Virus record (IMG/VR): IMGVR_UViG_3300031087_000015
Span: 1 to 64,000 of that record
Strand: one strand, 5' to 3'
DNA from: a virus
Length of the DNA: 64,000 nt
In this document: one piece after another, positions 22,513 through 63,349 of the stretch
How positions within the stretch are numbered: the first letter of the stretch is position 1
Layout: every line of letters begins with the position of its first letter
Notes under the pieces: model-generated
Databases searched by the model: none
The model's input: the letters and a program-made list of their open reading frames with translations, nothing else
Told to the model about the DNA's origin: nothing
Program-made: the position numbers and the translations under genes

Positions 22513-24525
22513 TTACAGATCGGGTAAATAAATACGATCCATTGGATGCGACGGGCGTTCAGGGTTAAGGAAGCTATCGATGTTCAACAGAGTCTGACCA
22601 TGCTTCTCAAACGCATAATCCACGGTCATACTACGGTTGTTCATCAACTCTTTAAACGGCGCAAACTCACGCGGTTCTTCTGGATGTGGGAAACGATAAT
22701 CGCCGGTCTTAGCATCACGTACCAGACACACCGCCAAGATCAACTCACAGTGTGCAATGTTAAACGTAAAGCGTTTGTTAACCGTATCGTGTAGCTCCAC
22801 TACCAGCGCCGCCAGCTCGTCCTCAGAACGGGCCATTTCTTTTGCACGTTTGTCGCGACGACGACGTAGACGCTTGAACTTGATGATGTCAGCAACCTCG
22901 GCCATAAACTCCAAGGTGTTGATGTTCTTCAGCGGCAGTTCGAAGACTGGCTTGCTGAAATCCCAATCGCTGAGATCAATCTCATACCCGCGCCCTTCTG
23001 TAGCCGACCATCCCTTACGCTTGATATACGCAAGGAAAGCCGTAGTGAAGGAACTCTTACGAGAACCCACAGCCACAGATACGTCAAGAGCTAACCGGTC
23101 TTCCGTACCCAGGTCGTCAAAGGTCAGTGTAACCGACTCGATCTCTGAAATACGAGTGATTGGTAACACGGTCAGATCTTTAACGTGGTTGAGTTCAGTC
23201 AGGTTAAATGCATCAGTCTGACTGACGGTCATGATGGTGTGACGAGTTGCCAGATTAGGGTTGAGATTAATCTGACTTTCTTTCTTACCGTTGACCAAGA
23301 ACGCACGATCACCTTCACTGATGAAGAACGGTTCAATAGATGCACCGCTATCCAAGTGCTTAGTTGACAACACGTTCTGTGATACACCAGAACAGAGTTC
23401 GATTACAGACAGGTGGCCTAAGTTAGCACCATCTGGAATCTGTAACGAGATCTCACCCAGACACGCCTGACACACGCCCTGATGTGGTAAGCAACGACAC
23501 CCTAATGGGCTGCGCACATACACACGTTGACCCAGCAGGTGTTTATCCGCAGTAGTGATGCGATGTAGGGTAGGTGCGGTACCCGGCGCTTCTTCTACGT
23601 AATAATACTTACCTTGATAGGTCTTCAGGTCAGCAGAGGTTGTCATTGTCAATGGCAGCATGATTGTACTACCACAGTCCCCTTTAAAGAGGTGACGCAA
23701 ACTCTGTGCTAACAGCTGAAGCTGACGGTTCAGATACTCTACTTCAGCCAGCGGATCTTTTGCAAAGAACAGTGCCTTAGAAGCAGATCGTGATTCGATG
23801 GCATAGTCATGCAAGCGATGCATGCCACGAGCATAACCAGCCATCATTGCGTGGGGGAAGACGTTGGAATCGATATCCGTTACGAATCGATGTCCACCGA
23901 ATATCTGGTTCTGCTGTCCTGCTGAAACCAAACCGGATTTGGCCGATTCCGCAGGACGGTTCCCCACCAGTTCTCCTTCACGGGTGAGAATACTCTGTAC
24001 TACGCGACTGATGTTTGCAATGCTGTTCTGAGTAGGCACTGCTTTTGACAGGGCATCTACCAGTTCAGGGTGTCGCAATACATCGATGAAGTCCTTAGCC
24101 GAGATACTGGTCACGTATGCCGGTAAGCGATACACGATTTCGTTATACAAAGTGTTAGTTACTTCATACGCACAGAGCTGAAGATCATTCAGACTCACCG
24201 AACCCGAATACGTATCCCACACCGACCAGAATGCGTTTCCGATCATTTGCAGGGACGTACCTTTATTAAGGCGAACCTTTGGGTCCATCAGATGCTCAAC
24301 TAATAACGGCGTTTCCGGATAGCGCCGATGGAACTCCCAGAAATACTGGGAGAGTATTAGTTCACGACCGGTGGTTTGTACAATGCCGTTATCGAACTTA
24401 ACGTTGATCTTAAACTTGGGCTGGTCGAACTTAGCCCAAATTGCATCTGTTGGCATTTTCAATAGCTCACGAGCTGGATAAGCGTCCGCTATTCCAACTG
24501 ACGACTCAACAAGAGCTGTTGTCAT
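22513..24525 (-). CDS. Non-virion RNA polymerase beta' C-terminal subunit (phiKZ gp74-like)
   Basis: ESRSASKAL bridge helix, GDCGS, RSPLGC...GVCQACLG, SQNVLSTKH. Confidence 0.88.
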   Translation of the reverse strand: MTTALVESSVGIADAYPARELLKMPTDAIWAKFDQPKFKINVKFDNGIVQTTGRELILSQYFWEFHRRYPETPLLVEHLMDPKVRLNKGTSLQMIGNAFWSVWDTYSGSVSLNDLQLCAYEVTNTLYNEIVYRLPAYVTSISAKDFIDVLRHPELVDALSKAVPTQNSIANISRVVQSILTREGELVGNRPAESAKSGLVSAGQQNQIFGGHRFVTDIDSNVFPHAMMAGYARGMHRLHDYAIESRSASKALFFAKDPLAEVEYLNRQLQLLAQSLRHLFKGDCGSTIMLPLTMTTSADLKTYQGKYYYVEEAPGTAPTLHRITTADKHLLGQRVYVRSPLGCRCLPHQGVCQACLGEISLQIPDGANLGHLSVIELCSGVSQNVLSTKHLDSGASIEPFFISEGDRAFLVNGKKESQINLNPNLATRHTIMTVSQTDAFNLTELNHVKDLTVLPITRISEIESVTLTFDDLGTEDRLALDVSVAVGSRKSSFTTAFLAYIKRKGWSATEGRGYEIDLSDWDFSKPVFELPLKNINTLEFMAEVADIIKFKRLRRRRDKRAKEMARSEDELAALVVELHDTVNKRFTFNIAHCELILAVCLVRDAKTGDYRFPHPEEPREFAPFKELMNNRSMTVDYAFEKHGQTLLNIDSFLNPERPSHPMDRIYLPDL

Positions 24526-26708
24526 TTAAAGATCCCCTTAGCGCGTTTGCCTAAGCTACGCATGCTGATACCACAGCACCACATGATGTGTTTGATGAAT
24601 TGGATAGCACGGTTACCACCCAACGGCACTTTATTACGATCAACAGCCAGCTCAATTTGGGCAGGGTTCTTAGCTTCCAGAATACTACGAACTTCTGCTT
24701 TGTGTGCAGCTGGGTTGTTCGGACGATCCAGAAGGTCAGCAACGACATAATCTGGGACCAATGCCAGCAGGAGCCGAATCTCTGCTTCACCAGTAATACG
24801 AACGGCGTTCTCACGACCAGGAGTAGAATGCTTGTCCATATTCGTCATACGAGCAAGGATACCGAAGTGTTGGCGTTTTGGTGACGCAACAGAACTCCAG
24901 TCAAAACCATTCTTCTCCAGCATGATGATGTAGGTCTCACCGATCAACATCTTCTGCTTGGTTGTGGTAAAGTTGCCATTAGAGTCACGATACGTAACCG
25001 GATGCATCTCCAGTCCATATCGCTGCTCCAGGCGGTCGATGATTGTTGCGCCGATATCCTCAGTGTGTGGCGGAAGCCACAGATAGATTCCATCTTGACA
25101 AACGGCACCTACATGACTCTTGCGATATTCCGGGACACTTGAAATCTCACGACGCATTAGCTCGGCCATTAACGGACTAGCAATGCTGTAATATTCCATT
25201 AACTCGTCATATGCCTGGTCTACGAGGTTCTGGTTGTTCAGCGAACCACCTACGCCAGCCATGGCTACTACGCCCTGCACACCCATGATCTCACGAACAC
25301 GTCGTGTCATCTGAGCACCAAAGGCATTCGTTGCCTGTTCGAACACACCGCCTAAGTTCATCCTTTTGATGTTGGAGTCATTATCCATCACCAGGTCAGC
25401 GGTTGTACCGTCTGGCCACTTAGGCATATCTTCAGGTTCACGAATCTGTACAATTACGCCCTTACCACCGTGCATGGTTGTAACTTTAGAACCGACTGAA
25501 GGGATGATGTCATATTTGAACACAATCTCAGTACGGAAGTCACCCACCGGTGCACGGCGATATGTCATGTTGACACGAGCGCCATCTGGCTGTTGAACCG
25601 ACTTATGGTTAGTGAAGGCATATGCCCACACAATCATCCGATGTAGATTCGGATGCAGAATGAGTTTCTCACCATGTTGGCGTTTCAAAGATTCATACAG
25701 ATCGATCAGCTTGTTTTGCTGGGCGAGTAAAGTTTCGTAATAGCGACGACTCTGCTCATCAATTCCTTTTGGTGTTTTCTCTTCATTATTCACACGGTCC
25801 AGATTATGGTCGTGGAATACCGTGACGTCGATAACTTCTGCGCCAGGCTTACCATAGACCAGTTGGTCAAAGATATAGTCTGGTTCAGCCAACGCCTTCT
25901 CAGTCATATCAACTACAGCCAACAGCTCGTCATACTCGCGGATAGCATAGACGATGCCGTGTGGTGCGATCTTCTGACCGATCTCGGGGTGTGCCCTGTA
26001 AACCCCATTGGAGCTATAAAGACCGATAGGATAACAACGATTACCCCACGTACCCACACGCGATTCAATGCCTACCGATTTGTAGCGCTCCAACCACGCA
26101 CGGTTTGCTAACACACCATCCTCAATGGTTGTATGTAGCGACATGTAAATCATTTTAGAACTAACGCCGGTTCGATAGTTACCAAACTGATCGATAGATG
26201 GACTGGTTGCAATAACCATACCTTCTTCAGCTGGACCATCTTCTACCAGCATCGACATTCTGTTGCCCTTCGGTTTATACATAAAACCAAAGTACTGATG
26301 TCGGATGTTATACGTCGACACGTCCATAACACCAAAATATGCTTTGTTAGGATACTTTGGATTGTTCGAACGATAGACGGCAAGCTTTTGTGGATTATAA
26401 CTAAAGCGATAAGCACCTTGGGTTGGATACTTATCGATGACGCGAATGAAACGACCTTCCTCGGGTATTTTCTGTTGGAATGTATAACGACCGTATTCCC
26501 GCTCTACACCAGTCAGGGTACGGCGAACACTTGGGTCTGCAATTACAGGCACCTGAGACAGATGACTGGTATACATCTGTGCACGAGATGCTGAATCATT
26601 TGCGGCCCACGGGTTAGTATTCGACCCGCCACCTAGGTTGTTGACGTGGAGTTCATTGGTCTTCCCAACGATTGACTCTACCCCAAACAAATCACTGTGC
26701 TTTTCCAC
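24522..26708 (-). CDS. Non-virion RNA polymerase beta C-terminal subunit (phiKZ gp71-73-like), uninterrupted
   Basis: DSASRAQM..SHLSQ, IEDG, GSKVTTMHGGKGVI, KRMNLG, RITGEAE; GTG start with GAGGAG SD. Confidence 0.92.
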   Translation of the reverse strand: MEKHSDLFGVESIVGKTNELHVNNLGGGSNTNPWAANDSASRAQMYTSHLSQVPVIADPSVRRTLTGVEREYGRYTFQQKIPEEGRFIRVIDKYPTQGAYRFSYNPQKLAVYRSNNPKYPNKAYFGVMDVSTYNIRHQYFGFMYKPKGNRMSMLVEDGPAEEGMVIATSPSIDQFGNYRTGVSSKMIYMSLHTTIEDGVLANRAWLERYKSVGIESRVGTWGNRCYPIGLYSSNGVYRAHPEIGQKIAPHGIVYAIREYDELLAVVDMTEKALAEPDYIFDQLVYGKPGAEVIDVTVFHDHNLDRVNNEEKTPKGIDEQSRRYYETLLAQQNKLIDLYESLKRQHGEKLILHPNLHRMIVWAYAFTNHKSVQQPDGARVNMTYRRAPVGDFRTEIVFKYDIIPSVGSKVTTMHGGKGVIVQIREPEDMPKWPDGTTADLVMDNDSNIKRMNLGGVFEQATNAFGAQMTRRVREIMGVQGVVAMAGVGGSLNNQNLVDQAYDELMEYYSIASPLMAELMRREISSVPEYRKSHVGAVCQDGIYLWLPPHTEDIGATIIDRLEQRYGLEMHPVTYRDSNGNFTTTKQKMLIGETYIIMLEKNGFDWSSVASPKRQHFGILARMTNMDKHSTPGRENAVRITGEAEIRLLLALVPDYVVADLLDRPNNPAAHKAEVRSILEAKNPAQIELAVDRNKVPLGGNRAIQFIKHIMWCCGISMRSLGKRAKGIFK

Positions 26709-26756
26709 GTAAGCTCCTCACGACTACGCTACCACTGTTTATTACTTAGCCCTTTA

Positions 26757-28642: not shown

Positions 28643-30079
28643 TTAGCGGTAAGATACCGTGTTGATGTTTTCCATCAGACCCTGGATATCGCGAGCGATA
28701 ACACTGCGCTTGTTGGCATCCAGAGTGGCGATTGGTGTAGTCAATGCATCACACCACTGTGGGTTCTGGTAAGGCACCAGCGGACCACCGTTCAGGGATA
28801 TCTTGATTTCAGTATCGCCTAACAGATCACAGTATACTTCGAGGTGAGCCAACATCTGGTTACCGAAAGTGATACCAGCCATCAGTTCAGTTGCAACGCG
28901 ATGACAGAACGACTGAACTGCATCACGCATGTACGACTCATCCTGAGACAGAATCTTAGCAAAGCTCTGTGCGTCATGTACGATGATGGTATACGGCGTA
29001 CCGTTGTTTGGGTTAGGCATGTCGTTTGACATGGTAACAACCATCTTGGTAAACTTACCATCGTTCATCAACGTAGGCAGGGTACTTGCCACCATACGTG
29101 CAACAACGGTTTCGTTGGACACAGTATCCCAGTTCTCACTTTCACCACGACGTGCAATGAATGTATCGTGAGATACTGCAACACCACGGTTGAACGCTAC
29201 GTGAGTTGCGTTTTCCAGATCTGGGCGGAAGCGCAGCAGCTCACCCCAGGACACGCCATGACGATGCGACATATCGGTATTGTTCAGCAAGGTACCCAAT
29301 GATGCTAACTCATAGGGGTTGCGGTCTGCTACAGTTGCCTTAGCGGTTTTAAGTACGCTAGACATGTTCGCATCCTGCACGCTCGCGGAACTCAGTGCCG
29401 TTTTATACCCGCTCATAACGCGAGAGAGATAACTACCACTGTGGTTATTAGCGCGGTTAGACAGACGCGGTCCATCCAGTGCGATATTACGTGAATCGAT
29501 CGTGCGAAGATCACGGGCATCAGCAATGCCACCCAGTGCTGTAGTCAGACCGATACCGTCGAAGATATCCTGAGGTGCCAGATAGAACTGGTTTACCTCA
29601 CGACCCGGATTGAAATACCCCGGCATTACCTGGTTAGACTCACGGATATGCAGTCGCTTCTGAACCTGGCCATTTGGACCAATGCGATCCATCACCGTTA
29701 CCGATGTGATGCTGTTGATGAACAACATCATGTTCGGGTCCATTGTTTCGCTGCGAGTGATACCCATGTAATCGGTATACCCACTCAGGATATCAACCAG
29801 CACATTGCCGTTGGAAGATACCTGCTCAATCTCCATCATAAAGCGAAACTTCGGTTCGTTCCAACCATTGACGATGTTAACGCTTGCCTCAACTTTGGCA
29901 GACGGTCGCATAATCTCTGAACCCACAACAGATAGAGCTGGTACTGAAAGGTTTTCGCCAAGCTCAGTGGCGTGCTGAAGTTTAGCCAGGCTGTCTGCGC
30001 TAACACGAGTACCGTAGCTTGCTGACCACATGTCGTTGTAGGTACCGGTCTCTGTAAACAATACGCGACGAATAAACAT
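28643..30079 (-). CDS. picA: Probable phage-nucleus protein importer PicA/Imp1 (phiKZ gp69-like)
   Basis: 478 aa, directly downstream of the gp68-like gene in the conserved core block; assignment is mainly by synteny and size. Confidence 0.6.
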   Translation of the reverse strand: MFIRRVLFTETGTYNDMWSASYGTRVSADSLAKLQHATELGENLSVPALSVVGSEIMRPSAKVEASVNIVNGWNEPKFRFMMEIEQVSSNGNVLVDILSGYTDYMGITRSETMDPNMMLFINSITSVTVMDRIGPNGQVQKRLHIRESNQVMPGYFNPGREVNQFYLAPQDIFDGIGLTTALGGIADARDLRTIDSRNIALDGPRLSNRANNHSGSYLSRVMSGYKTALSSASVQDANMSSVLKTAKATVADRNPYELASLGTLLNNTDMSHRHGVSWGELLRFRPDLENATHVAFNRGVAVSHDTFIARRGESENWDTVSNETVVARMVASTLPTLMNDGKFTKMVVTMSNDMPNPNNGTPYTIIVHDAQSFAKILSQDESYMRDAVQSFCHRVATELMAGITFGNQMLAHLEVYCDLLGDTEIKISLNGGPLVPYQNPQWCDALTTPIATLDANKRSVIARDIQGLMENINTVSYR

Positions 30080-31650
30080 TATTCCTGTACTCCTGCTTTA
30101 TGATTATTAAGTTTGATGATGAACGCCGCTACCTGCACTTTGAAGTCCGAGGGAATCAGATGACCACCGGAGCGATACGGACGCATGGTGACTTGTGCCA
30201 AAAGTTCCTGTGGTGCATTGAGCAGATAAGGACGACCGTCAAATAGCGAAAAGAGTTTTTCTATCGCTATCATCGCAGCATTCTCAGAACGCTGCTGTTC
30301 ACCGGTATCTTTCTTTCCACTACTCCTTCTGTGGTAGAAGGGATACTGTTCTTTCAAGATCCGGAATTGCTCGTTTGTTACACGACTACGGGTATCCGTT
30401 CCGAAAACCATATCGTCGTCCATAATAGAAGGCTCAGCTGTTAATAAAGACGCCAAGTCGTAGAAGCCCCAGTGCCAATAAAGCGCCTGTGCTAATCCTA
30501 TCATGTTCACACGCTCTGGTTGTTCCAGGGCTGGAATGAAACGCGCTTTCAACGCAGCGTCAACTGCCCACTGCGTCAGCGCAATCTGACCATCGGTTGG
30601 CAGATATCCGTTATTGCGGCGCAAGTGGCCAACACACGCATCGACCATATCCATCGGTAGTGACGGATCAATAAGACGCCGTGCGTTTGCAACACCCTTT
30701 GCGTACTTCCATGCCAGCAGAAACTTATAGTCGTTGATCTGCTGCTTAACGATTATTTTCTCAGCTTGTGATTCCTTATCGTCATCACGATATTCCATCC
30801 CGTCCGGCTTCTTACGCACCTGACCATCAAACTTACGGTCAAGGCTAGTCAGGGTGGTTTCGATCTGACGGAAAATGTTTGAAACGATGTTAGTGCTTGA
30901 GTTGTACTGAGAGAACAGTTGACCATCTGGCCTTCTGTGCATTACAACACCGACACACACCTTTCGAATGAGTACTACACCAAATACCCAATCTTCCAGC
31001 TCAGCACTACCGATACCTGCGACGATTGCAGACATGGTAATCTTGGCTGTATCTACGTTCATGCGAACATAGCGTTGGAGCTTGTCATAGTCTGCGGTAT
31101 GAATCAGCTCCGTGTGATTCATCAGACCCATTGCCATGAACTCTTTGAAGTGAGTTCCTGACGTTTTCTTAGATTCGCGTACGAATAAGTTCCAGATTGG
31201 AATCATCGGACGCAGTGCTGTAACGAGACAGATTAGCCCCATGTAGTCGTCACGCAGATACGTGCGGTCAGAACTACTGTACTCACCCATCGCCGTTTGT
31301 ATCTCGTTTGGCACGATGATATTACAGTGCAAACGGACAAAGCGCGCAAGGTCAGCATATGACCAGCAACTGTACAATTCAGCAACCAGAGCCACTACGC
31401 GCTCGTGCAAACGAACATCGTTAAACGTCGTTAAGAACGCTTCTTCGATATCCGAATAGATACGCATGATACGATCTTGTACGTCATCAGGTAACGTACC
31501 CCAGAATGCATTGATGTCCATAAACAACTCACCCGTCGACGGGAAAGGTGTGCGGTCAAAGATGCTCCCCTCAGAGACAATTCTTTTCCCTTTATGCTCA
31601 ATGACAATGCCGGTCAATTTATCGCTATTGTCTAGCGGATAGATCTCCAC
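30079..31650 (-). CDS. nvRNAP promoter-specificity (sigma-like) subunit (phiKZ gp68-like)
   Basis: 523 aa, GTG start with GGAGGT SD, own early promoter, synteny. Confidence 0.7.
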   Translation of the reverse strand: MEIYPLDNSDKLTGIVIEHKGKRIVSEGSIFDRTPFPSTGELFMDINAFWGTLPDDVQDRIMRIYSDIEEAFLTTFNDVRLHERVVALVAELYSCWSYADLARFVRLHCNIIVPNEIQTAMGEYSSSDRTYLRDDYMGLICLVTALRPMIPIWNLFVRESKKTSGTHFKEFMAMGLMNHTELIHTADYDKLQRYVRMNVDTAKITMSAIVAGIGSAELEDWVFGVVLIRKVCVGVVMHRRPDGQLFSQYNSSTNIVSNIFRQIETTLTSLDRKFDGQVRKKPDGMEYRDDDKESQAEKIIVKQQINDYKFLLAWKYAKGVANARRLIDPSLPMDMVDACVGHLRRNNGYLPTDGQIALTQWAVDAALKARFIPALEQPERVNMIGLAQALYWHWGFYDLASLLTAEPSIMDDDMVFGTDTRSRVTNEQFRILKEQYPFYHRRSSGKKDTGEQQRSENAAMIAIEKLFSLFDGRPYLLNAPQELLAQVTMRPYRSGGHLIPSDFKVQVAAFIIKLNNHKAGVQE

Positions 31651-31688
31651 ATCAAACCTCCATTACTTACGCTAACCTTTACACTAAG

Positions 31689-31704
31689 ATAATATATATC
31701 TCAA
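31689..31704 (-). promoter_or_regulatory. Putative early promoter of gp68-like/picA operon
   Basis: TTGAGATATATATTAT. Confidence 0.7.
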
Positions 31705-32043: not shown

Positions 32044-32059
32044 TTTCTTCCCTTAGCAA

Positions 32060-32158
32060 AATAAGTCCCACGCCATTCCCTTTCGAGAATGGCGTGGTGT
32101 TTTGTGATGCACGTCTGTCGCCGTGCACTACCCTTCGAGCTGACATGGAGTTCATCTC
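32060..32158 (-). ncRNA. Candidate sRNA 'sR32'
   Basis: Promoter AAAAAATTAC with 19 nt to the G of TATG; hairpin with ACUCCAUG loop; second hairpin UGCACG/CGUGCA; terminator 32068-32097; no credible ORF. Confidence 0.55.
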
Positions 32159-32184
32159 ATACTAATAGAAAGGGTTGTAATTTT

Positions 32185-32673
32185 TTACTTCCCGTTAGTC
32201 CACGCGGTGTAATCAAACAGCTGAACTTCACCGCCGGTATTGGGATCGAACTGCATGGCAAACTCTACTGCCGCCTTAGCATCTTTCCCCATTTTCATGG
32301 CAGCGCGAGCGTAGGCAGACCCAGATCCCACAGAATCGGTTAGAATAGGCTCACCGAGTACGAAGGCATAGTCTTCGTCGGTATATAACCAATGTCCCTT
32401 TCCATCCTCAGTTACGAGAATGGCAGTGAAATCCACTTTATCAGGCACTGGCGTCAGTGCGGTTAAACCTTCTTCCAGTAGCGCCTTTAAAATCCGGCAC
32501 CCACCTGCCGTTCCAGCACATGCAAAAGCTACGGCACCTACACCATCATAACTGTGCTTAGCTGGATCGACCATCAGAAGCTTCATTGCTTTGTCTGTGG
32601 TGATACCCATGCCCGTTGAGGTCTCACGGCTATCAGCAGCAAGTATGTTACCATCCCACGCAATTGTCGTCAT
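32185..32673 (-). CDS. Ntn-hydrolase, HslV/proteasome beta-like peptidase
   Basis: N-terminal (M)TTIAWDG..LAADSR, K at about position 31, AGT, GSGS, DPNTGG. Confidence 0.8.
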   Translation of the reverse strand: MTTIAWDGNILAADSRETSTGMGITTDKAMKLLMVDPAKHSYDGVGAVAFACAGTAGGCRILKALLEEGLTALTPVPDKVDFTAILVTEDGKGHWLYTDEDYAFVLGEPILTDSVGSGSAYARAAMKMGKDAKAAVEFAMQFDPNTGGEVQLFDYTAWTNGK

Positions 32674-40931: not shown

Positions 40932-42425
40932 TTAATCTTCCCCGTACAGCCAGTTAGCAGCTGTGGCCAGGATAGGTGCCGGTATCGTGATGTTACCGGA
41001 TATCTTACGTGGTTGACCTACATCCAACACACCTACGTGTGGGCGCAGTGGTTCCAACATACGACGCATGTAACGGTCAGTAATCAGCTTACCGTTGAGT
41101 GCATCACCATCGAAGTCTGCGTTGAAGCTGACCAGGATAAGCACGGAGATGCCGATCGTTACATCTTTCAGGTCTGTCTTCACTTTCGTGATTTGCAGTA
41201 ACTGAATGGACTTAGACGACAGGGTTGGGTTACGGTTCAGCAACATGGCTGGACCTTTGTCATCTGAATCCGCGATGATCTTCTTAAAGAGGTCATCAAT
41301 CTCCTGGTCGTAGTGCATGGTTGCCCAGTGCAGACGCCGTTCGATCTCATTAGGGTTCAGGCCCTGTGCAGTGAGGTAGTTAGCAATGTGTACCGTAAAG
41401 ATACTCACAGCCAGACCCCATGGTAAATGTACTTCTTCGTAATGGTGCGGTTCAGTGATTGAACTGATTACAGCACGGAACGAGAAGTCTTGGCGTGAAC
41501 CAACACCATGTTTACGGTTCCACCCGCGTTTGGTACCCAGGGAGTCACGGAACTGAATAGCATAATAGCTAGACAGTTGTTTAACCGCTAACACACAACG
41601 GTTCTCACACTTTGTCTGTGAGAGTGGCATTGGTGTAGCACGGATACTGGCGATAGATCGAACTGCATCCAGCGCTGTGCCCGCTGGCGTCTCATTGGAA
41701 TACGTACCGGTTGGGGTATGCTCCATGACAATAGCCAGTTTATTGGGTATCGGTAAGAACTTACAGAATAACCGCGACCGGTTCATCTGAATGAACTCAC
41801 GCATCTTGACACGCATACCTGGCGCGATAGAACGAATGGTTTTACCGTCTGTCAGCAGCTCCATAATCCCATCGAAGTTCTCAATGAAATTATTCAATCC
41901 GCGACGGAAGGGTTCGCCGTTACGCATAGTGTATCCCTGCATGATGTCGAACACTTGCAGGTTATCGCTTTGCGGTCTGTAGCTAGAACTAACCAGCCAC
42001 TCTAAAACGTTGTTGCCGCTGAAGGTTAACAGCTTTGAGAATATCGCCCAGAAGACCGGATTGATTAAACCATGCACCCCCTCAGGTGCTGCAATCCAGA
42101 CATTCGATTCTATCGGTCTCTCTGTGGCAGGGAGTACCATATAGGAGCAGTCTTCGCAGATCTTACCAACGAAGCGTTCGCCTTTCCATTTACCACAGTC
42201 ACAGGACGGCAGTATTGGCAGCGTATCGCCTTTGTAGTTGGTAATCAGTAGTGCGTTGAGCTTCTCTTTCCCTTCAACGGTAGAGGAATCAATGTCGTTA
42301 ACAATAGTCGGACGACAAGACAGCAACGTGATTTCTTTATCGAAGTCCGTTACTTCTTGACTGATGCCGTACTCAATGGGAAGTGAATCCGCATTGATTG
42401 TTAACATAAAGTCTCTTACGCGCAT
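40932..42425 (-). CDS. Non-virion RNA polymerase beta' N-terminal catalytic subunit (phiKZ gp55-56.1-like), uninterrupted
   Basis: Catalytic NADFDGD, NRNPTL, RQDFSFRAVI, Zn ribbon CDCG...CEDC; SD GAGGT. Confidence 0.93.
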   Translation of the reverse strand: MRVRDFMLTINADSLPIEYGISQEVTDFDKEITLLSCRPTIVNDIDSSTVEGKEKLNALLITNYKGDTLPILPSCDCGKWKGERFVGKICEDCSYMVLPATERPIESNVWIAAPEGVHGLINPVFWAIFSKLLTFSGNNVLEWLVSSSYRPQSDNLQVFDIMQGYTMRNGEPFRRGLNNFIENFDGIMELLTDGKTIRSIAPGMRVKMREFIQMNRSRLFCKFLPIPNKLAIVMEHTPTGTYSNETPAGTALDAVRSIASIRATPMPLSQTKCENRCVLAVKQLSSYYAIQFRDSLGTKRGWNRKHGVGSRQDFSFRAVISSITEPHHYEEVHLPWGLAVSIFTVHIANYLTAQGLNPNEIERRLHWATMHYDQEIDDLFKKIIADSDDKGPAMLLNRNPTLSSKSIQLLQITKVKTDLKDVTIGISVLILVSFNADFDGDALNGKLITDRYMRRMLEPLRPHVGVLDVGQPRKISGNITIPAPILATAANWLYGED

Positions 42426-42460
42426 TTAGACCTCACATACAAAAATAGAAAGGCGGACAT

Positions 42461-42482
42461 AAGGGGAGCCGAAGCTCCCCTT
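42461..42482 (-). terminator. Terminator after chmA
   Basis: AAGGGGAGC-cgaa-GCTCCCCTT (UUCG on - strand) followed by ATGTC. Confidence 0.8.
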
Positions 42483-42506
42483 AGTTTTTACATCAAGACG
42501 GTACTA

Positions 42507-44870: not shown

Positions 44871-44971
44871 GAATGACTTATATAACCCTAGAAGAGTCTG
44901 ACCTTGCGGGTCAGTAAGCTCTCTATATTATAGAGCAGTCAGTGTAAAAAATTACCTAAGGTGGAGGTTTC

Positions 44972-46063
44972 ATGTATACGTTGTTCGAAACGCCAAACCC
45001 CAGAAAAGCTCCACGCTACTTCTATATGGGGTTTGAAGCCGTACGCCGTCGTTGGAAAGAGAATGTCGTCAGACTGCAAGGTCATTGGAGAACCAGTGGC
45101 TATGCGGTGAAATCGGAACACATTCTTTCTAAGTTGGTTGGCAGTTTCTCCATACCTTTGTACGACGATGTAAGAAAATACCGAGATGCCATTATTGACA
45201 TGTCACCTCAGCTTTGCATGGGTGTTGGTATTGCTGCACCAACTAACGGCACAATCAGTGTAGAGAACCCAGGGTGGTTCTACGGACTGCGCGACAAAGA
45301 ATATCTGCTTTCCGTAGCGGATGACTTTGATGCATATAACGCGGCCTACAATTGGTCTGAGCAACAGCCTCTTAAAGTGTTACGTCACACCTTAACTGAT
45401 CTTAATATGGCACTGCCCAACGGGGACGTACCTGACGTTGCGGATGGTTATGTCATTATAAGTATCAACATCCCGTTACTCGCGGTAATGTACTGGGGTT
45501 GGTGTAAGTCGCAGGTTGAAAAGGAAGCTGGCACAGCTGAACGTATCCAACAGTTTATTGGTCAACACGTTCTTCCTTCTCTCTTGCCCTCACAGACGAA
45601 CGTGGCATTCTTTAACCGTATCATGGCGACACTGAACAATGTTCCGGTGACCCCAGAGAAGCGAGCGAATAGCATTGCCATTGCGACCAACTACACTAAC
45701 ATCGATCGGATCATCGATACTATCCTGAGTGACATGCGAACTAACCACATGACGTTCCATGAGATCTTTGGTTGTATTCCTACGATCACAGACGAGTCTA
45801 TGCTCTCCTTTATACAGACACCGGATACTGTTATCTCCAGACAGAACCAGTGGGCGTTAGAGGCAGCATACATTCCCTATACGTCTTTTGCACTCAATCT
45901 TTCTGCTCTCTTTAACAACACGCAGAACCAGATGGAGCGTAATTACACTTGGCGTTTGGTGAACCGTGTGGTGAACGACAGGCTGTTAGATGCAGCACCC
46001 CGTCGCATACGCAACGATTTGCGCTTTGACTTCGACACGCAAGTTGCGGTGTGGACAAAATAG
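44972..46063 (+). CDS. Conserved hypothetical protein (phiKZ gp52-like position)
   Basis: 363 aa, GGAGGT SD, divergent from chmA. Confidence 0.75.
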   Translation: MYTLFETPNPRKAPRYFYMGFEAVRRRWKENVVRLQGHWRTSGYAVKSEHILSKLVGSFSIPLYDDVRKYRDAIIDMSPQLCMGVGIAAPTNGTISVENPGWFYGLRDKEYLLSVADDFDAYNAAYNWSEQQPLKVLRHTLTDLNMALPNGDVPDVADGYVIISINIPLLAVMYWGWCKSQVEKEAGTAERIQQFIGQHVLPSLLPSQTNVAFFNRIMATLNNVPVTPEKRANSIAIATNYTNIDRIIDTILSDMRTNHMTFHEIFGCIPTITDESMLSFIQTPDTVISRQNQWALEAAYIPYTSFALNLSALFNNTQNQMERNYTWRLVNRVVNDRLLDAAPRRIRNDLRFDFDTQVAVWTK

Positions 46064-46070
46064 ATATCTG

Positions 46071-46111
46071 CCCTCTCTACTCCCGCAAAGGAGTAGAGAG
46101 GGCTTTATGTC
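46071..46111. terminator. Bidirectional terminator
   Basis: CCCTCTCTACTCC-cgcaaa-GGAGTAGAGAGGG followed by CTTTATGTC. Confidence 0.85.
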
Positions 46112-46113
46112 GC

Positions 46114-48240: not shown

Positions 48241-48302
48241 TTTATTTTCCTCACTGTTTACTACGCATACCATCAGCAAGGAAAGTAAAAAAAGAAAAGA
48301 GG

Positions 48303-48409
48303 CATAAAAAGACGGTCCCCGAAGGGACCGTCGAAACGCGCTATTTAAGGAATGTGTACAGCCTAAGGTCCCCCGTTACCCGTAGCGCCCCTGACACAGA
48401 CTGTAACAC
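48303..48409 (-). ncRNA. Candidate sRNA 'sR48'
   Basis: Promoter AAAAGTTGTTAC with 20 nt to the G of TATG; 5' stem GUGU(U)ACAGUCU/AGGCUGUACAC; unpaired AUUCCUUAAAUA; UUCG terminator 48311-48332. Confidence 0.6.
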
Positions 48410-48418
48410 ATATAATAG

Positions 48419-48838
48419 TTAATTTACAGTAACAACTTTTGCCACTTTATTACCGGTGGTAGCAATTGCTGCTGTAATCGCGTTGATGACGTCCTGGTTA
48501 CAGTTCTCGACGTAGAACGCCATGGTGTTATTATCGATAACGGTGATCGAGGCTGGGATAATGTACGGTAAGCCTACGAAGTCTACCGATCCATTGGCCA
48601 GTCTAACCTTTAACCAGTTGTAGTCATCGGCACTAGCTGGGGTACCAGCAGGCAGTGTACCGTAAACATTGGCGTGAATAGCGTACGGATCAAATCCCGC
48701 TTGTTTAACCGAGTCTGCATCAACGATACCCAGGATTTTGCAACCGCTGTAATCTGTGCGGATGATGTTCTGGGTTTGTTGGTACAGAGAGAAGTTCACG
48801 GTGTCGCGGATATTTGCTTTGCCTAACACATCCATCAT
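48419..48838 (-). CDS. Conserved small protein (phiKZ gp49-like, SH3-like beta fold)
   Basis: 139 aa, GGAG SD, immediately upstream of the DNA polymerase gene. Confidence 0.65.
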   Translation of the reverse strand: MMDVLGKANIRDTVNFSLYQQTQNIIRTDYSGCKILGIVDADSVKQAGFDPYAIHANVYGTLPAGTPASADDYNWLKVRLANGSVDFVGLPYIIPASITVIDNNTMAFYVENCNQDVINAITAAIATTGNKVAKVVTVN

Positions 48839-52073: not shown

Positions 52074-52104
52074 GGCATAAAAGCTCCTGAAATTAATCAG
52101 GAGC
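52074..52104 (-). terminator. Terminator
   Basis: GCTCCTGA-aattaa-TCAGGAGC followed on the - strand by TTTTATGCC. Confidence 0.8.
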
Positions 52105-54281: not shown

Positions 54282-54778
54282 TTAATGCTCCCTATTTGCC
54301 GGCATTCATCCAGCAGGATATCGAAATTAATGGGTTCGTGGGTTTTAGTAATAGCTGCTGTCTTTGGCGCAAACGAATCCGTACCAAAGACTAGACCGCT
54401 TTTAACATGAACATTGGGGCGGTATGTAAATATCCACCTATCTCCAATGGTAATATATATCCCACGTTTTAATGGAACGTTCCTGGCGCGGTTGGCACCA
54501 AAGCCCAGCTGACCGTCCTGGTACCATACGAGTTCGTCATTATGGCACTCGGCGTATTTACGCAGGCACATCTTAATCAGACCATCGCGTCGCCACTTAT
54601 CGGCGTAGTCACCTAACCCAAACAAAACCACCGAGTTCTTAAAAGCAGCAATAACAACATCACCGTATACGTGGTATTCTCGAGTTAGGGTTACAATGGC
54701 ACCGCTAGATGTTTCCGCCGAAATCTCCCTCAGAGACCCGCACGGTATCATTGACAGGGACACTGAGCTTTTCGCCAT
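54278..54778 (-). CDS. Hypothetical protein
   Basis: 166 aa; start uncertain. Confidence 0.55.
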   Translation of the reverse strand: MAKSSVSLSMIPCGSLREISAETSSGAIVTLTREYHVYGDVVIAAFKNSVVLFGLGDYADKWRRDGLIKMCLRKYAECHNDELVWYQDGQLGFGANRARNVPLKRGIYITIGDRWIFTYRPNVHVKSGLVFGTDSFAPKTAAITKTHEPINFDILLDECRQIGSIK

Positions 54779-55376
54779 TTTCGTCTTTTTCCATTTTGAT
54801 CAACATGTTGTACGCCAGAAATGCGCGGGTCAACATCGCCTCGCGCTGGTAGCCGTTGCCAGGCAAGTAAGCCGTAGCCGCACGGCGGATGTGCTCACAC
54901 AGTGGTGTACCTTCACCCCACCATTTATAGGCTTCGATGCTTGCCTCTAATTCTTCATCAGTGAAGTGGTGTTTGGGGGAGAGCTGCATTACCACACTGA
55001 GATCGTTCAGGTAACCCAGCACACCATGATCGGTATAGAGATGGTCCGGGATATCCATCAGTCCCGTACCAAGACTGATTACTTTCGAATAGGTAAGTGC
55101 TCTCACTACTTCGCTTTTCATCAGGGTGAACTGAAGAACGCTATCGAATTTCAGGACTACAATGTCGCCAATCCAACTGTCCTGAACATCGACGTCGATA
55201 TCGCGATCAACCAAACCCATCGCTGACAGCAACCCGTTAAGGTATTCGCGCACCGGAGTTACACGAATATAACTCTCTGGCAGTTCGTAGCTCAATTCTT
55301 TCGATTCGTTAATGATGCCTTGAACTAACTCAGCCATTTTGCGCTGGATCTTTAAGTAATCTTCGTTGGTTTCCAT
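54705..55376 (-). CDS. Hypothetical protein
   Basis: 223 aa with AAGGA SD. Confidence 0.7.
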   Translation of the reverse strand: METNEDYLKIQRKMAELVQGIINESKELSYELPESYIRVTPVREYLNGLLSAMGLVDRDIDVDVQDSWIGDIVVLKFDSVLQFTLMKSEVVRALTYSKVISLGTGLMDIPDHLYTDHGVLGYLNDLSVVMQLSPKHHFTDEELEASIEAYKWWGEGTPLCEHIRRAATAYLPGNGYQREAMLTRAFLAYNMLIKMEKDENGEKLSVPVNDTVRVSEGDFGGNI

Positions 55377-55399
55377 TTTGGTTCCTTAATTGAGAAAGG

Positions 55400-55508
55400 G
55401 CATAAGGGGTACCCAATTAAGGGTACCCCTAGCGGCAGCGTAAGTAATGGAGGTGAGGGTCAGCGCGTGAGGTCGCTTTACTGCAATTGAGGGATTACAG
55501 TTTTCTCC
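55400..55508 (-). ncRNA. Candidate trans-acting sRNA 'sR55' (antisense to nvRNAP subunit RBSs)
   Basis: Promoter AAAAAATTAC with 20 nt to the G of TATG; two hairpins with CCUCA loops; 18-nt perfect complement of the gp68-like RBS; terminator 55405-55430. Confidence 0.72.
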
Positions 55509-55547
55509 ATATAATACAGGCATTTATGTAATTTTTTACAAACTGGG

Positions 55548-55970
55548 TTAACTGGTAGTTGCTGCTATGCCGGTGCAATGGAGAAATCTCCGCCACAGAC
55601 TGTAGTTGATTTTATCGTGATCCATCAACCAGTTCATGGTAGAGATTAAATCTGAGGTTTCATCCCAGACAACATAGTCTCTCCGCATGCAGAAACCTTC
55701 CTCTAACAGTCCAGCCAGTCTTCGTATTGCGATGAGATCGGTCATATACTCAGGTACGAGCAAACGACGAATCGCTTTTGTAATACGACGTTTTGCGGCG
55801 AGATTCCAAAAGGGTGTGGCACCACGAATCATGCTGAAGGCTTCAGTAAACTCCCCTACACTGATTCGTGTTAAGACCAATTCCGCTTCGTCGTCGCACA
55901 AGCGAGTGTCGGCCATTAAAATCTGATACGTGGCATTGCGAATACCTTGCACCTCTGAGTCACGTAACAT
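55548..55970 (-). CDS. Hypothetical protein
   Basis: 140 aa with AAGGAG SD. Confidence 0.7.
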   Translation of the reverse strand: MLRDSEVQGIRNATYQILMADTRLCDDEAELVLTRISVGEFTEAFSMIRGATPFWNLAAKRRITKAIRRLLVPEYMTDLIAIRRLAGLLEEGFCMRRDYVVWDETSDLISTMNWLMDHDKINYSLWRRFLHCTGIAATTS

Positions 55971-57660: not shown

Positions 57661-58717
57661 TTGTACTCGCAAAGCGTTTCATCACAGCCTGAGCACGATT
57701 ATCCGTTACCGCAAACTTACCTAATGTCCGTAACACAGACACGAGTTCCATTTGCGAATAGTGTTTGAGAGAATCGCCATAATAGTCGAATACACCTCCG
57801 TCACGAATACCCGCTTTCCGCATTGCTACAGCAGCCGGGTTTTTGTTGGTATGTCGACGCACCACTGATATAAAATCAGCAATTGCCATGCGACTACCGT
57901 CAAGGTACTTGGACACGTAGTGTGCTGACTTCAATACATCACGAGACTTATTGTCGCACACGGTCATCAACGCGATTACATCGCGGATTGTCATCGTATC
58001 TACCATCTCGATGGGTAGCGTTGACTTATATTTAAGCCAATCGTAGATGACGTTCATGTTACCTATCAGTGACATTGAGCTAGGCGCGCGCGCCCACGCA
58101 CGCACCTTAGCGTATGCTTCAGTTCCAACCATTTGCTCCAACGACAGACCGGTGTGTTGTTCTAAGAACACATCGCCTGAGTCAAAGCGCCCGTTGATAA
58201 CGAATTCCATGAATGAGGATAACTCAATCAAGTATCCGTTGGCAGACATCACTAGCTTGGACAAGACCACCAGAACATCGTTACTGTAGGTCGTAGGAAT
58301 GATGATGATATCAGAATTCAATCCTACCTTCGCTAGTGCCTTGTTCATCGTTGCGTGCTCTTCCTGGTTCTTGGGGACAGGCCAGAAGAGGATGTCGGGT
58401 TCGGAAACCCCAACCTGTAGCTCAACATTGACGCCGGCGGGTTTACGATCAACGATTTCGATGATGTCGATTTCTGGCTCAGTCGGGTCATCAACTTCAG
58501 ACCAATCAGTGTACTGACCAATATCGATTTGCGGGAACAGCTCTTCCCCTACTGTTACATCCACCCAATCACTCTGAGTTGAGTCGGATGCATTGCCCGG
58601 CTTTGCCTTAGGCGTAGTTGTTTCGTCATCGATCATGGTGACAGCGTACATTGCTAATGACGCTAGTGTCGTTGCAATCGCAACCCCGATCGTTGAAACC
58701 ACAAGTTGTCTATTCAC
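57656..58717 (-). CDS. Hypothetical membrane-anchored protein
   Basis: 353 aa, N-terminal hydrophobic helix, GGAGGT SD. Confidence 0.7.
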   Translation of the reverse strand: MNRQLVVSTIGVAIATTLASLAMYAVTMIDDETTTPKAKPGNASDSTQSDWVDVTVGEELFPQIDIGQYTDWSEVDDPTEPEIDIIEIVDRKPAGVNVELQVGVSEPDILFWPVPKNQEEHATMNKALAKVGLNSDIIIIPTTYSNDVLVVLSKLVMSANGYLIELSSFMEFVINGRFDSGDVFLEQHTGLSLEQMVGTEAYAKVRAWARAPSSMSLIGNMNVIYDWLKYKSTLPIEMVDTMTIRDVIALMTVCDNKSRDVLKSAHYVSKYLDGSRMAIADFISVVRRHTNKNPAAVAMRKAGIRDGGVFDYYGDSLKHYSQMELVSVLRTLGKFAVTDNRAQAVMKRFASTK

Positions 58718-59076: not shown

Positions 59077-59225
59077 TCTGAGTTGTCGGGTTCGTCTGGG
59101 TCAGTGAATGGACGCGTGAAATCGCTGGCACCTTCTACTTGCTGCTCGATCCACGCCATACGTTCGTCGAAGTCCGGTAGACGCTCGTTCAGTTCCTGGT
59201 GATACTGTTCGGCTTCTCGACACAT
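59070..59225 (-). CDS. Small acidic protein (51 aa, below the ORF-track cutoff)
   Basis: MCREAEQYHQELNERLPDFDERMAWIEQQ...; GAGGT SD; stop overlaps the next start (ATGGTAA). Confidence 0.65.
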   Translation of the reverse strand: MCREAEQYHQELNERLPDFDERMAWIEQQVEGASDFTRPFTDPDEPDNSEW

Positions 59226-59273
59226 TTTACTATACCTCTGTTAAATAAGTAATTTTTTACTTTATTGGTTTAT

Positions 59274-59465
59274 GATTTGAGAGAAATGCTCTCGATGGTT
59301 GACACAACACGCATGCAGCAGCAGACGCTAGCAGCAATGCAGATGTTGACCAGTTGTAGGGGGCGGCTCCTGTGATCATTGCCTGATGACAGGCGCTTGA
59401 GATATCGGGAAGCCGCCACCACACGAAGACAATTGGGGAGCACCTTCGGGTGTTCCTCTTATGCC
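59274..59465 (+). ncRNA. Candidate structured ncRNA
   Basis: TATG at 59271-59274; several G-U-containing helices that favour the + strand; UUCG terminator followed by TTATGCC, with no upstream + strand gene. Confidence 0.5.
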
Positions 59466-62310: not shown

Positions 62311-63349
62311 AATGTCCTACCTTATCAACGATCCACTCTGGTGAAATGGATACTACTTCGTAATCATCGTTATCCGGATCTTTATATTCGAAGTTCAGGT
62401 CGGCGCTGCGCCAGAACGTCGTGCCCGGATGTAACACCAACCCACTCCCACAAAATGCCATGCCCGCTTCAGCGTAGTAGATTTCGGTCATGGATGGGTG
62501 TCGTTCGCTAAGGAGATCGTAATAATCTTCATTAGGTGGAGACCAGGCCGTGTCGAAGTCCAGATAAACCATCTTAGTGTCTTCATCGACGTTAACATGG
62601 AACTGGAATCCTGGCCACTTAGTCCCGTACTTAGACACGTAACTACCGTAGCTGGAGTGACGACTGCCTAACCGCCCTAACCGAAGTGGGTTATCCGGAT
62701 CAGGCGCACGCATGTGGCCATTGAACCCGTTTATCTCAGGTAAGACATCAGGCGGGATAACCTCCAACATAGAGTGATAGCCATCGGGGTCCGTGGGTTC
62801 CTTTACACGCACCGGGATTTCCTCATCTTTCCGGTAGTAGTAATTTAACCAGCCGAAATAGCGATCGTTAATGGTGTTAGTTTGATCTGTTCGTGTAAAC
62901 ATATCGGCACAGTAATCGAAATAGACTTCTTTGAAAAGATCGGCACTCTGTTTCCAGGACTCCGAAGCAGTTACGCACTCCACGAGTGTGTCGATGGTAT
63001 CAAAGAAACGACGACTGTTGGCAAAGGCAACCAATCGAGTTAATTTGTCAGTATCAAATACCCCGGTTAATTCCAAGGCAAGATCTGACGCCTCGTCGTC
63101 GATAGGCTTATTGAAGTCTACACGAGCACCGCCGTATTTAGTCATCCAGCTAAAAGGTTCGTGACCGTAGCACTCTCCACGAACGCGAATAACCCCTGAG
63201 AAGACTAGAAGGAATAGCGCCCTGGCTGAGTGCACGCCGTGTGCCAACAGTTCGCTGAACCCGGATGAATCCATGGCCTGGATAACGCTCTCTCTTGTAG
63301 CACCTTTCGCCGGATCGAAGTAGATCCTGTTTGCTACCCAGTTTGGCAT
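62300..63349 (-). CDS. DUF1281/YubB ferredoxin-like domain protein
   Basis: MPNWVAN start, YGTKW, FDTAWSPP, YYAEAGMAFCG. Confidence 0.8.
   Translation of the reverse strand: MPNWVANRIYFDPAKGATRESVIQAMDSSGFSELLAHGVHSARALFLLVFSGVIRVRGECYGHEPFSWMTKYGGARVDFNKPIDDEASDLALELTGVFDTDKLTRLVAFANSRRFFDTIDTLVECVTASESWKQSADLFKEVYFDYCADMFTRTDQTNTINDRYFGWLNYYYRKDEEIPVRVKEPTDPDGYHSMLEVIPPDVLPEINGFNGHMRAPDPDNPLRLGRLGSRHSSYGSYVSKYGTKWPGFQFHVNVDEDTKMVYLDFDTAWSPPNEDYYDLLSERHPSMTEIYYAEAGMAFCGSGLVLHPGTTFWRSADLNFEYKDPDNDDYEVVSISPEWIVDKVGHYGG

Follow-up and report, generated by a model that had tools for sequence, protein, structure and literature searches.

Short RNAs arising from the 5'UTRs of phage genes have been described in two phages of the group to which the virus studied here, a nucleus-forming-type jumbo phage, belongs. 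In phiKZ, 17 candidate ncRNAs are derived from 5'UTRs through termination just after the promoter, some of which were confirmed by northern blot and none of which has a proposed target (PMC10914365). A further 11 short RNAs, also with no proposed target, were reported for 201phi2-1 (PMC11512511), and an earlier dRNA-seq study of phiKZ had predicted one sRNA, whose confirmation failed (PMC8244752). Here, we analyzed a spacer that presents the organization of these 5'UTR RNAs, namely a phage promoter, a structured RNA of 70-140 nt, a terminator and then a gene (PMC10914365, PMC11512511). In the window, which is the whole stretch of DNA analyzed and corresponds to the opening 64 kb of an IMG/VR virus record of 142 kb with an estimated completeness of 52%, the elements of this chimallivirus layout are a promoter at 55528-55539, a hairpin at 55405-55430 and, for the next gene, an ATG at 55376. 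One of the 201phi2-1 RNAs is likewise conserved by position among giant phages (PMC11512511). The phiKZ and 201phi2-1 RNAs are measured transcripts, whereas the present RNA is predicted from sequence and comes with predicted targets that co-vary with it. It has no detectable homology to phiKZ, where our covariance model of the RNA (R1, described below) gave no match at E-values up to 10. It is probably a regulator of a kind that so far had no assigned target in these phages.

Base-pairing regulators of this type are well known outside this group. RsaE/RoxS-type sRNAs are trans-encoded and use C-rich loops to bind the SD regions of several mRNAs. The predicted RNA resembles them in being short and structured, in ending with a Rho-independent-type terminator, in exposing CCUC/CCCUC in its loops and linkers and in having several candidate targets at or near the RBS; it differs in being phage-encoded, probably read by the phage multisubunit polymerase, and in its putative targets, which are the phage's own early genes. 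In P1/P7, the c4 antisense RNA recognizes a phage mRNA in trans by pairing at its ribosome binding region, and owes its specificity to short blocks of complementarity, which co-vary between the two phages. It is, however, cut from the same operon transcript as its target and serves temperate-phage immunity, whereas the present RNA lies 7-31 kb from its many predicted targets, in a lytic-type jumbo phage. DsrA, RprA, ArcZ and OxyS pair with the long leader of rpoS, the mRNA of a promoter-specificity subunit; these are host RNAs, mostly activators and Hfq-dependent, whereas the present RNA also matches all core subunits. In T4, the shut-off of early mRNAs involves RegA, a translational repressor, and RegB, an endoribonuclease cutting GGAG. 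The logic that we propose is similar, as a later product would turn down early-mRNA translation at initiation regions, but RegA and RegB are proteins and not antisense RNAs. The new part of this base-pairing sRNA would be its carrier and its target set.

An earlier note on this DNA had reported an 18-nt exact reverse-complement match between the spacer and the leader of the gp68 homologue. We confirmed this match: AGCGTAAGTAATGGAGGT is found at 55437-55454 on the plus strand and at 31656-31673 on the minus strand with no mismatch between the copies, and no third copy was found within two mismatches. The relation is not a cis-antisense one, the RNA and the gp68 site being 23.8 kb apart and both transcripts lying on the minus strand. 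The same note had considered such a match as not expected by chance. Under simple models this part stood, as Markov simulations predict 0.05 exact repeats of at least 18 nt per window and 0.3 per record, compared with three seen in the window and six in the record. Because the record contains three other perfect long-range 18-mers, the match by itself is weaker evidence than previously assumed. One of these repeats is in the window (48473-48490 / 57963-57980) and two are in the 142-kb record (59325-59342 / 78259-78276 and 11063-11080 / 106972-106989). They involve coding DNA, or match a coding to a non-coding stretch, are oriented in ways that paralogy would not explain, and have no obvious rationale; the 59325-59342 copy is intergenic and could correspond to another antisense relation. 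The 18-mer is thus not a chance event under simple models, yet alone it is not decisive. The three unexplained repeats would also fit a match devoid of function, whether due to chance, to local recombination or to the leftover RBS of a lost plus-strand gene, as would the lack of a plus-strand ORF following the site.

On the minus strand, the spacer is preceded by a gene at 55548-55970 and followed by a gene encoding a 223-amino-acid protein (54705-55376, with its ATG at 55376), in the upstream region of which the RNA is located. Neither flanking gene has a Pfam or PHROG match. The elements succeed one another on this strand in the order GTAAAAAATTAC, TATG, about 80 nt, a 10-bp hairpin, CUUAUGCC, and the SD and ATG of the next gene. 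The promoter claimed for the spacer was supported. Its motif GTAAAAAATTAC (55528-55539), an A-rich run with TAC about 20 nt ahead of the start, occurs four times exactly in the window, where 0.33 copies would be expected, and its TTAC and spacing are kept in all relatives. A TATG at 55508-55511, located 20 nt after TTAC, designates G55508 as the likely transcription start on the basis of the motif; it is kept in five of the seven homologues, and reads AATG in the cultured Erwinia phage pEa_SNUABM_54 (pEa54) and TATAG in lineage ERR9974861. The spacer motif agrees with the description of phiKZ middle promoters, which are A-rich with TACT centred at -22 (PMC8244752); late promoters of the phiKZ nvRNAP carry (-3)TATG(+1) (PMC7618050). 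Two other copies of GTAAAAAATTAC, at 44944-44972 (plus strand) and 59223-59260 (minus strand), have an SD and an ATG only 16-23 nt downstream. A start 20 nt after TTAC is a poor fit at these copies, where it would leave the mRNAs almost leaderless, and therefore the start site of the spacer RNA is not secure: either the start differs at these two copies or the corresponding genes are also read from upstream promoters.

The terminator proposed at 55405-55430 also held. Its 10-bp hairpin is conserved with compensatory changes, five of the 10 pairs being altered on both sides with 100% of the cells paired, and the tail that follows it, CUUAUGCC, is of a kind that recurs behind the hairpins of other gene ends here, including that of the chimallin gene. 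The U-tail of the spacer terminator is short, which counts against it. Gene-end hairpins of the window (46070-46113, 48311-48332, 52083-52104, 42463-42490 and others) are regularly followed by U(1-4)AUGCC or UUAUGUCC. These tails therefore contain the TATG found at the transcription start in late promoters of the phiKZ type, and the terminator and the next promoter may form one composite element.

The earlier statement that the spacer is devoid of ORF is not literally correct, since a 45-amino-acid ORF without SD is present at 55386-55523 (minus strand); it holds for conserved ORFs, none of which was found. This ORF was rejected as a small protein because two relatives lack its ATG and indels of 1-4 nt disrupt its frame in others. 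A function of the plus strand was rejected as well, because it presents only a 7-codon, unconserved ORF and a weak fold (z-score of -1.9, with a diffuse ensemble). The minus-strand RNA starting at 55508 has a minimum free energy of -38.4 kcal/mol and a z-score of -4.7 over 111 nt, with minus-strand z-scores ranging from -4.7 to -5.9, and several of its pairs are G-U on the minus strand only.

According to its promoter and terminator motifs and its fold, the spacer would thus encode a conserved structured RNA of about 111 nt (55398-55508, minus strand), or of about 130 nt if transcription starts nearer to TTAC. Following the predicted start, a hairpin named P2 (55480-55501) presents a loop, CCCUCA (55488-55493), that is identical in all lineages, and five of its eight pairs are altered on both sides. 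A small hairpin, P3 (55462-55477), exposes the C-rich loop ACCUCACG (55466-55473). It is followed by the seed region (55431-55460), which holds the 18-mer (55437-55454) and in which AUUACUUACGCUGCC (55446-55432) is unpaired in the predicted fold, flanked by a short closing helix and the terminator.

The covariance model R1 was built from three copies of the RNA and finds exactly one copy per genome or contig set. Seven related jumbo-phage sequences carry one copy each, including that of pEa_SNUABM_54, at positions 214412-214538 of its record. After protein searches and contig walking, homologues scored 78 bits in SRR31967964, 146 bits in ERR12726169 and 161 bits in ERZ27231562, and 31 bits (E-value of 4e-6) in ERR9974861. 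The RNA is better conserved than its surroundings: with a 1.2-kb query against the pEa54 DNA, only the spacer matches (71%) and the flanking protein is 30% identical, while in ERZ27231562 the RNA is 94% identical to that of the window and the adjacent protein 65%. An alignment of six sequences, fitted to the model and thereby favoring structure, has standard pairs in 98.3% of the pair cells. In these six sequences, 11 of the 31 pairs are altered on both sides, five of them in P2 and five in the terminator; none of 500 shuffles reached the observed pairing and compensation, and structures slid along the alignment pair at 33-48%.

Other searches were negative. Rfam gave no match at E-values up to 10 in 55300-55650 and none at the gathering score in the whole window. 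Scanning collections with a 16-mer from the hairpin top returned 85 unrelated contigs, in which the 16-mer tops ordinary terminators; a promoter-plus-loop pattern returned from metagenomes only the known relative and three AT-rich chance matches; and a pattern based on the gp68 promoter found an unrelated phage.

The leader matched by the 18-mer belongs to a gene (30079-31650, minus strand) encoding a 523-amino-acid protein homologous to gp68 (PDB 7OGP_B, E-value of 2e-38; also recovered by tblastn), the sigma-like subunit of the phiKZ nvRNAP (PMC7618050). The predicted target site (31656-31673) includes the SD, and 5 nt separate its end from the GTG at 31650. An early-type promoter core, ATATATTAT, which relatives have kept, is present at 31689-31697 (minus strand); both gp68 and gp71 have the early consensus ...TTTGAGATATATATTATCTTAGTG, in agreement with that of OBP, N1M2 and phiKZ (PMC7058600). 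The next gene on the minus strand (28643-30079) encodes a homologue of phiKZ gp69 (PicA; BLASTP against PHIKZ069, E-value of 8e-43), and every lineage shows an overlap between its start and the gp68 stop, making a coupling of picA to gp68 regulation plausible. The gene order gp54-gp55 ... gp68-69-70-71-74-75 is the same as in phiKZ.

To rank candidate targets, we computed the duplex energy of the 30-nt seed with the 194 translation-start regions of the record predicted by our own ORF caller. Full-length duplex energies were dominated by long imperfect duplexes and discriminated poorly (gp68 ranked 79 of 320 in pEa54), and were replaced by seed-only energies and exact-match lengths. The gp68 leader ranked first of 194 (-36.9 kcal/mol) and the leader of the gp71-73 homologue second (-30.1 kcal/mol). 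The latter gene (24522-26708, minus strand; 7OGP_C, E-value of 4e-122) has candidate sites within 26716-26748: a 12-bp match with two G-U at 26725-26736, CGUGAGG facing the P3 loop at 26716-26722, and UAAGUAAU at 26741-26748. The gp55 homologue (40932-42425, minus strand; 7OGP_A, E-value of 2e-86) has an SD, GUGAGGUC (42429-42436), that is an 8-nt exact complement of the P3 loop; in the window its leader pairs with this loop only, and it ranks 102 of 194 against the seed. The leader of the DNA polymerase gene (phrog_2927 type; 48249-48266, minus strand) has imperfect complementarity to the seed and ranked third in the window; its ranks in three genomes are 3, 8 and 8. A gp123 homologue is absent from the record and was found on a 271,721-bp ENA contig; it would rank fifth and has a 9-nt complement to the P2 loop. 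This contig (ERZ27247428 k141_415483) encodes a gp68 protein identical to that of the window, and is probably the complete genome of the same phage. Based on these matches, gp68 is one of several predicted targets, together with gp71-73, gp55, gp123 and the DNA polymerase.

The pairing of the RNA with the gp68 leader, proposed from the window, recurs in independent lineages, in which the leader co-varies with the seed over 18, 9 + 6, 10, 13 and 8 nt. The relative about 80% identical is represented by two contigs of one metagenome, located on adjacent and non-overlapping parts of the record and assumed to belong to one genome. There, the gp68 leader pairs over 9 + 6 bp and still ranks first, the gp71-73 leader ranks second and that of the DNA polymerase eighth; the RNA keeps 17 of the 18 positions, and the gp68 leader carries three uncompensated changes, which counts against the pairing. 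In SRR31967964 the seed reads ...CUUUCACUUACGCUGCC and the matched sites are GGUAGCGUAA for gp68 (10 bp with one G-U), GUGUGAGG for gp71-73, facing the P3 loop CCUCACAC, and GUAAGUGA for gp55 (8 or more, extended by G-U), with a duplex of -31 kcal/mol at the leader of the DNA polymerase, which co-varies in this lineage. The seed differs again in ERR9974861 (...UGCUCCCAAACUUCGCUG...), where gp68 presents a perfect 13-nt match, CAGCGAAGUUUGG, which is the longest complement to its gp68 leader in 41 kb of contig. In the same lineage, gp71-73 has CGUGUGGG facing the P3 loop CCCACACG, gp55 has UUGGGAGCA (9 nt), gp123 is matched imperfectly and the DNA polymerase has AGCGAAGU (8 nt). In pEa_SNUABM_54, the sites are UAGUGGAA for gp68, AAGUAGUG for gp71-73, GUAGUGGA for gp55 and AGUAGUGGA for gp123, the last one across its GTG, with 9 nt for the DNA polymerase. 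The P3 loop and the gp71 start thus change together, as CCUCACG/CGUGAGG, CCUCACAC/GUGUGAGG and CCCACACG/CGUGUGGG. Because complementarity persists while the letters change, the antisense pairing looks selected, and the comparison of sequences strongly supports an antisense relation between the RNA and its targets. The same co-variation contradicts a functionless match. In four more lineages, four to five targets are again complementary to the RNA although the letters differ, and the plus strand has neither a conserved ORF nor a remarkable fold, so that chance or a relic retains an almost negligible probability.

The shared sequences might instead be a double-stranded DNA operator bound by a phage protein, present at the polymerase leaders and inverted in the spacer, with sites co-evolving with the protein. 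Such an operator would work in either orientation, which suits the inverted copy, and the gp68 and gp71 leaders are alike. Mismatches flanking the sites comprise 25 changes of G-U type and 29 of A-C type, with no bias; this lack of an excess of G-U-compatible changes fits an operator, and the count is in itself uninformative on RNA pairing versus a DNA motif. The targets, however, pair with different, overlapping sub-windows of one contiguous seed and have little in common: in ERR9974861, the gp68 site CAGCGAAGTTTGG and the gp55 site TTGGGAGCA share only four letters. This fits RNA pairing rather than one protein-binding motif. In addition, some targets pair with the hairpin loops and not with the seed, and the 11 compensatory pairs and the strand asymmetry would be needless for a DNA site. 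For these reasons, we regard an operator as very improbable.

The cultured phage pEa54 provided the statistics. All four of its separately translated nvRNAP genes, including the gp123 homologue (7OGP_E, E-value of 8e-80), have 8-9-nt perfect complements to one 12-nt seed, CUUCCACUACUU. Matches of at least 8 nt occur in 11 of the 320 leaders, and the presence of all four nvRNAP genes among them has a hypergeometric probability of about 8e-7. When mock 30-nt seeds were drawn from the pEa54 genome, gp68 and gp71 were both matched in 0.056% of the trials, and when the 272 kb of the genome were scanned blindly on both strands, no 30-nt window other than the seed was complementary to the four start regions together. 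The energy ranks are modest (5 to 37 of 320), which counts against the prediction. The 11 leaders matched over at least 8 nt exceed the number, roughly 2-3, that extrapolation from the shorter matches would predict. Leaders of this set lie at 217442, 221147, 30677 and 56542. Apart from the four polymerase genes, the set includes a DNA polymerase gene, a gene for a thymidylate kinase, the gene that immediately precedes gp123 and, with a 10-nt match, a gene of 158 amino acids; this excess suggests a wider regulon of early nucleotide-metabolism genes.

The same blind scan in phiKZ returned only SD-like, A-rich matches. An 11-mer, TCTACATTGGT, occurs in phiKZ (NC_004629) in the gp68 leader (58001-58011) and 59 nt upstream of gp71, inside the annotated gp70.1 (63216-63226), with a third copy on the other strand near 111968. 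Polymerase-gene leaders may thus have common motifs in phiKZ too; no complementary spacer RNA for this 11-mer was identified there.

The position of the RNA raises another question, as it is always directly upstream of the same 223-amino-acid gene, with the same gene order at the locus in all lineages. It could be mainly a cis-acting 5' leader or attenuator of this gene, in which abundant early polymerase mRNAs would pair beside the terminator stem and alter read-through or translation of the downstream genes, thus being regulators and not targets. The seed adjoins the 5' arm of the terminator hairpin (55431 versus 55430), and 5'UTR terminators with two modes of read-through have been described in phiKZ (PMC10914365). 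The pairing, however, never enters the hairpin arm in any lineage, leaving no obvious anti-terminator, and, unlike the RNA, the downstream protein is evolving rapidly (30-65% identity). Moreover, the complementarity covers the SD or start codon of several targets (gp68 in the window, gp55 in four lineages and gp123 in pEa54), which is sensible if those genes are the regulated ones. Taken together, these observations make a mainly cis-acting element unlikely; the RNA may act in trans and, in addition, in cis on the downstream gene.

We thus propose that the spacer encodes a trans-acting antisense RNA directed at the leaders of the nvRNAP subunits and of the DNA polymerase, which is the best explanation of the data as a whole and to which we assign a probability of about 0.6. 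Transcription would start on the minus strand at the middle/late-type phage promoter (TTAC, 20 nt, TATG) and would mostly stop at the hairpin just ahead of the next gene, yielding a folded RNA of about 111 nt. Its two C-rich hairpin loops and its single strand of about 15 nt would pair in trans with the leaders or start regions of early mRNAs, the targets being the gp68, gp71-73, gp55 and gp123 homologues, all nvRNAP subunits, and the DNA polymerase. The promoter of the RNA appears to be of the type read by the nvRNAP, while the targets carry early promoters, served by the virion polymerase. Once active, the new polymerase would make the RNA, which in turn would reduce further synthesis of the polymerase's own subunits, either by denying ribosomes access or by targeting the leader for cleavage. 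The promoter and terminator motifs point to a discrete RNA, to its ends and to an nvRNAP-dependent timing, and the promoter types suggest repression and negative feedback.

The mode of action originally proposed for gp68 needs to be qualified. Its leader was thought to be paired across the SD; the pairing is supported by the comparison of lineages, but simple SD occlusion is not the conserved mechanism because only the window and its closest relative have the SD within the paired site. In pEa54, SRR31967964 and ERR9974861, the gp68 site ends 16-26 nt before the start codon and leaves the SD uncovered, and the conserved pairing core, AGCG(U)AAGU, is located in the gp68 leader upstream of the SD. 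Given this variable position, leader cleavage or interference with a standby or enhancer site may therefore apply, rather than plain SD occlusion.

The target set of the RNA addresses two open questions, namely the phiKZ-like switch from the early, virion-polymerase programme to that of the nvRNAP, and the dosing of the five polymerase subunits. More tentatively, and at somewhat under even odds, in a chimallivirus-like clade one antisense RNA made by the polymerase could serve as a master switch on all separately translated nvRNAP subunits and on the DNA polymerase, closing the early programme and setting the polymerase dose. In that case, these phages would have their first regulon in which a small RNA acts on defined targets. 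The co-varying polymerase target set makes a direct experiment possible, as a carrier of the RNA, Erwinia phage pEa_SNUABM_54, is in culture. The blind scan, searching for a spacer complementary to several polymerase leaders, is applicable to every chimallivirus genome.

The RNA may also be one of several, as the window contains two more units with the same layout. The second unit (32050-32188, minus strand) is located just upstream of the gene preceding gp68 and presents GTAAAAAATTAC, 19 nt to TATG and about 100 nt, followed by a terminator-like hairpin, CCACGCCATTC...GAATGGCGTGG, with a U-rich tail; a 41-amino-acid ORF is found inside it.
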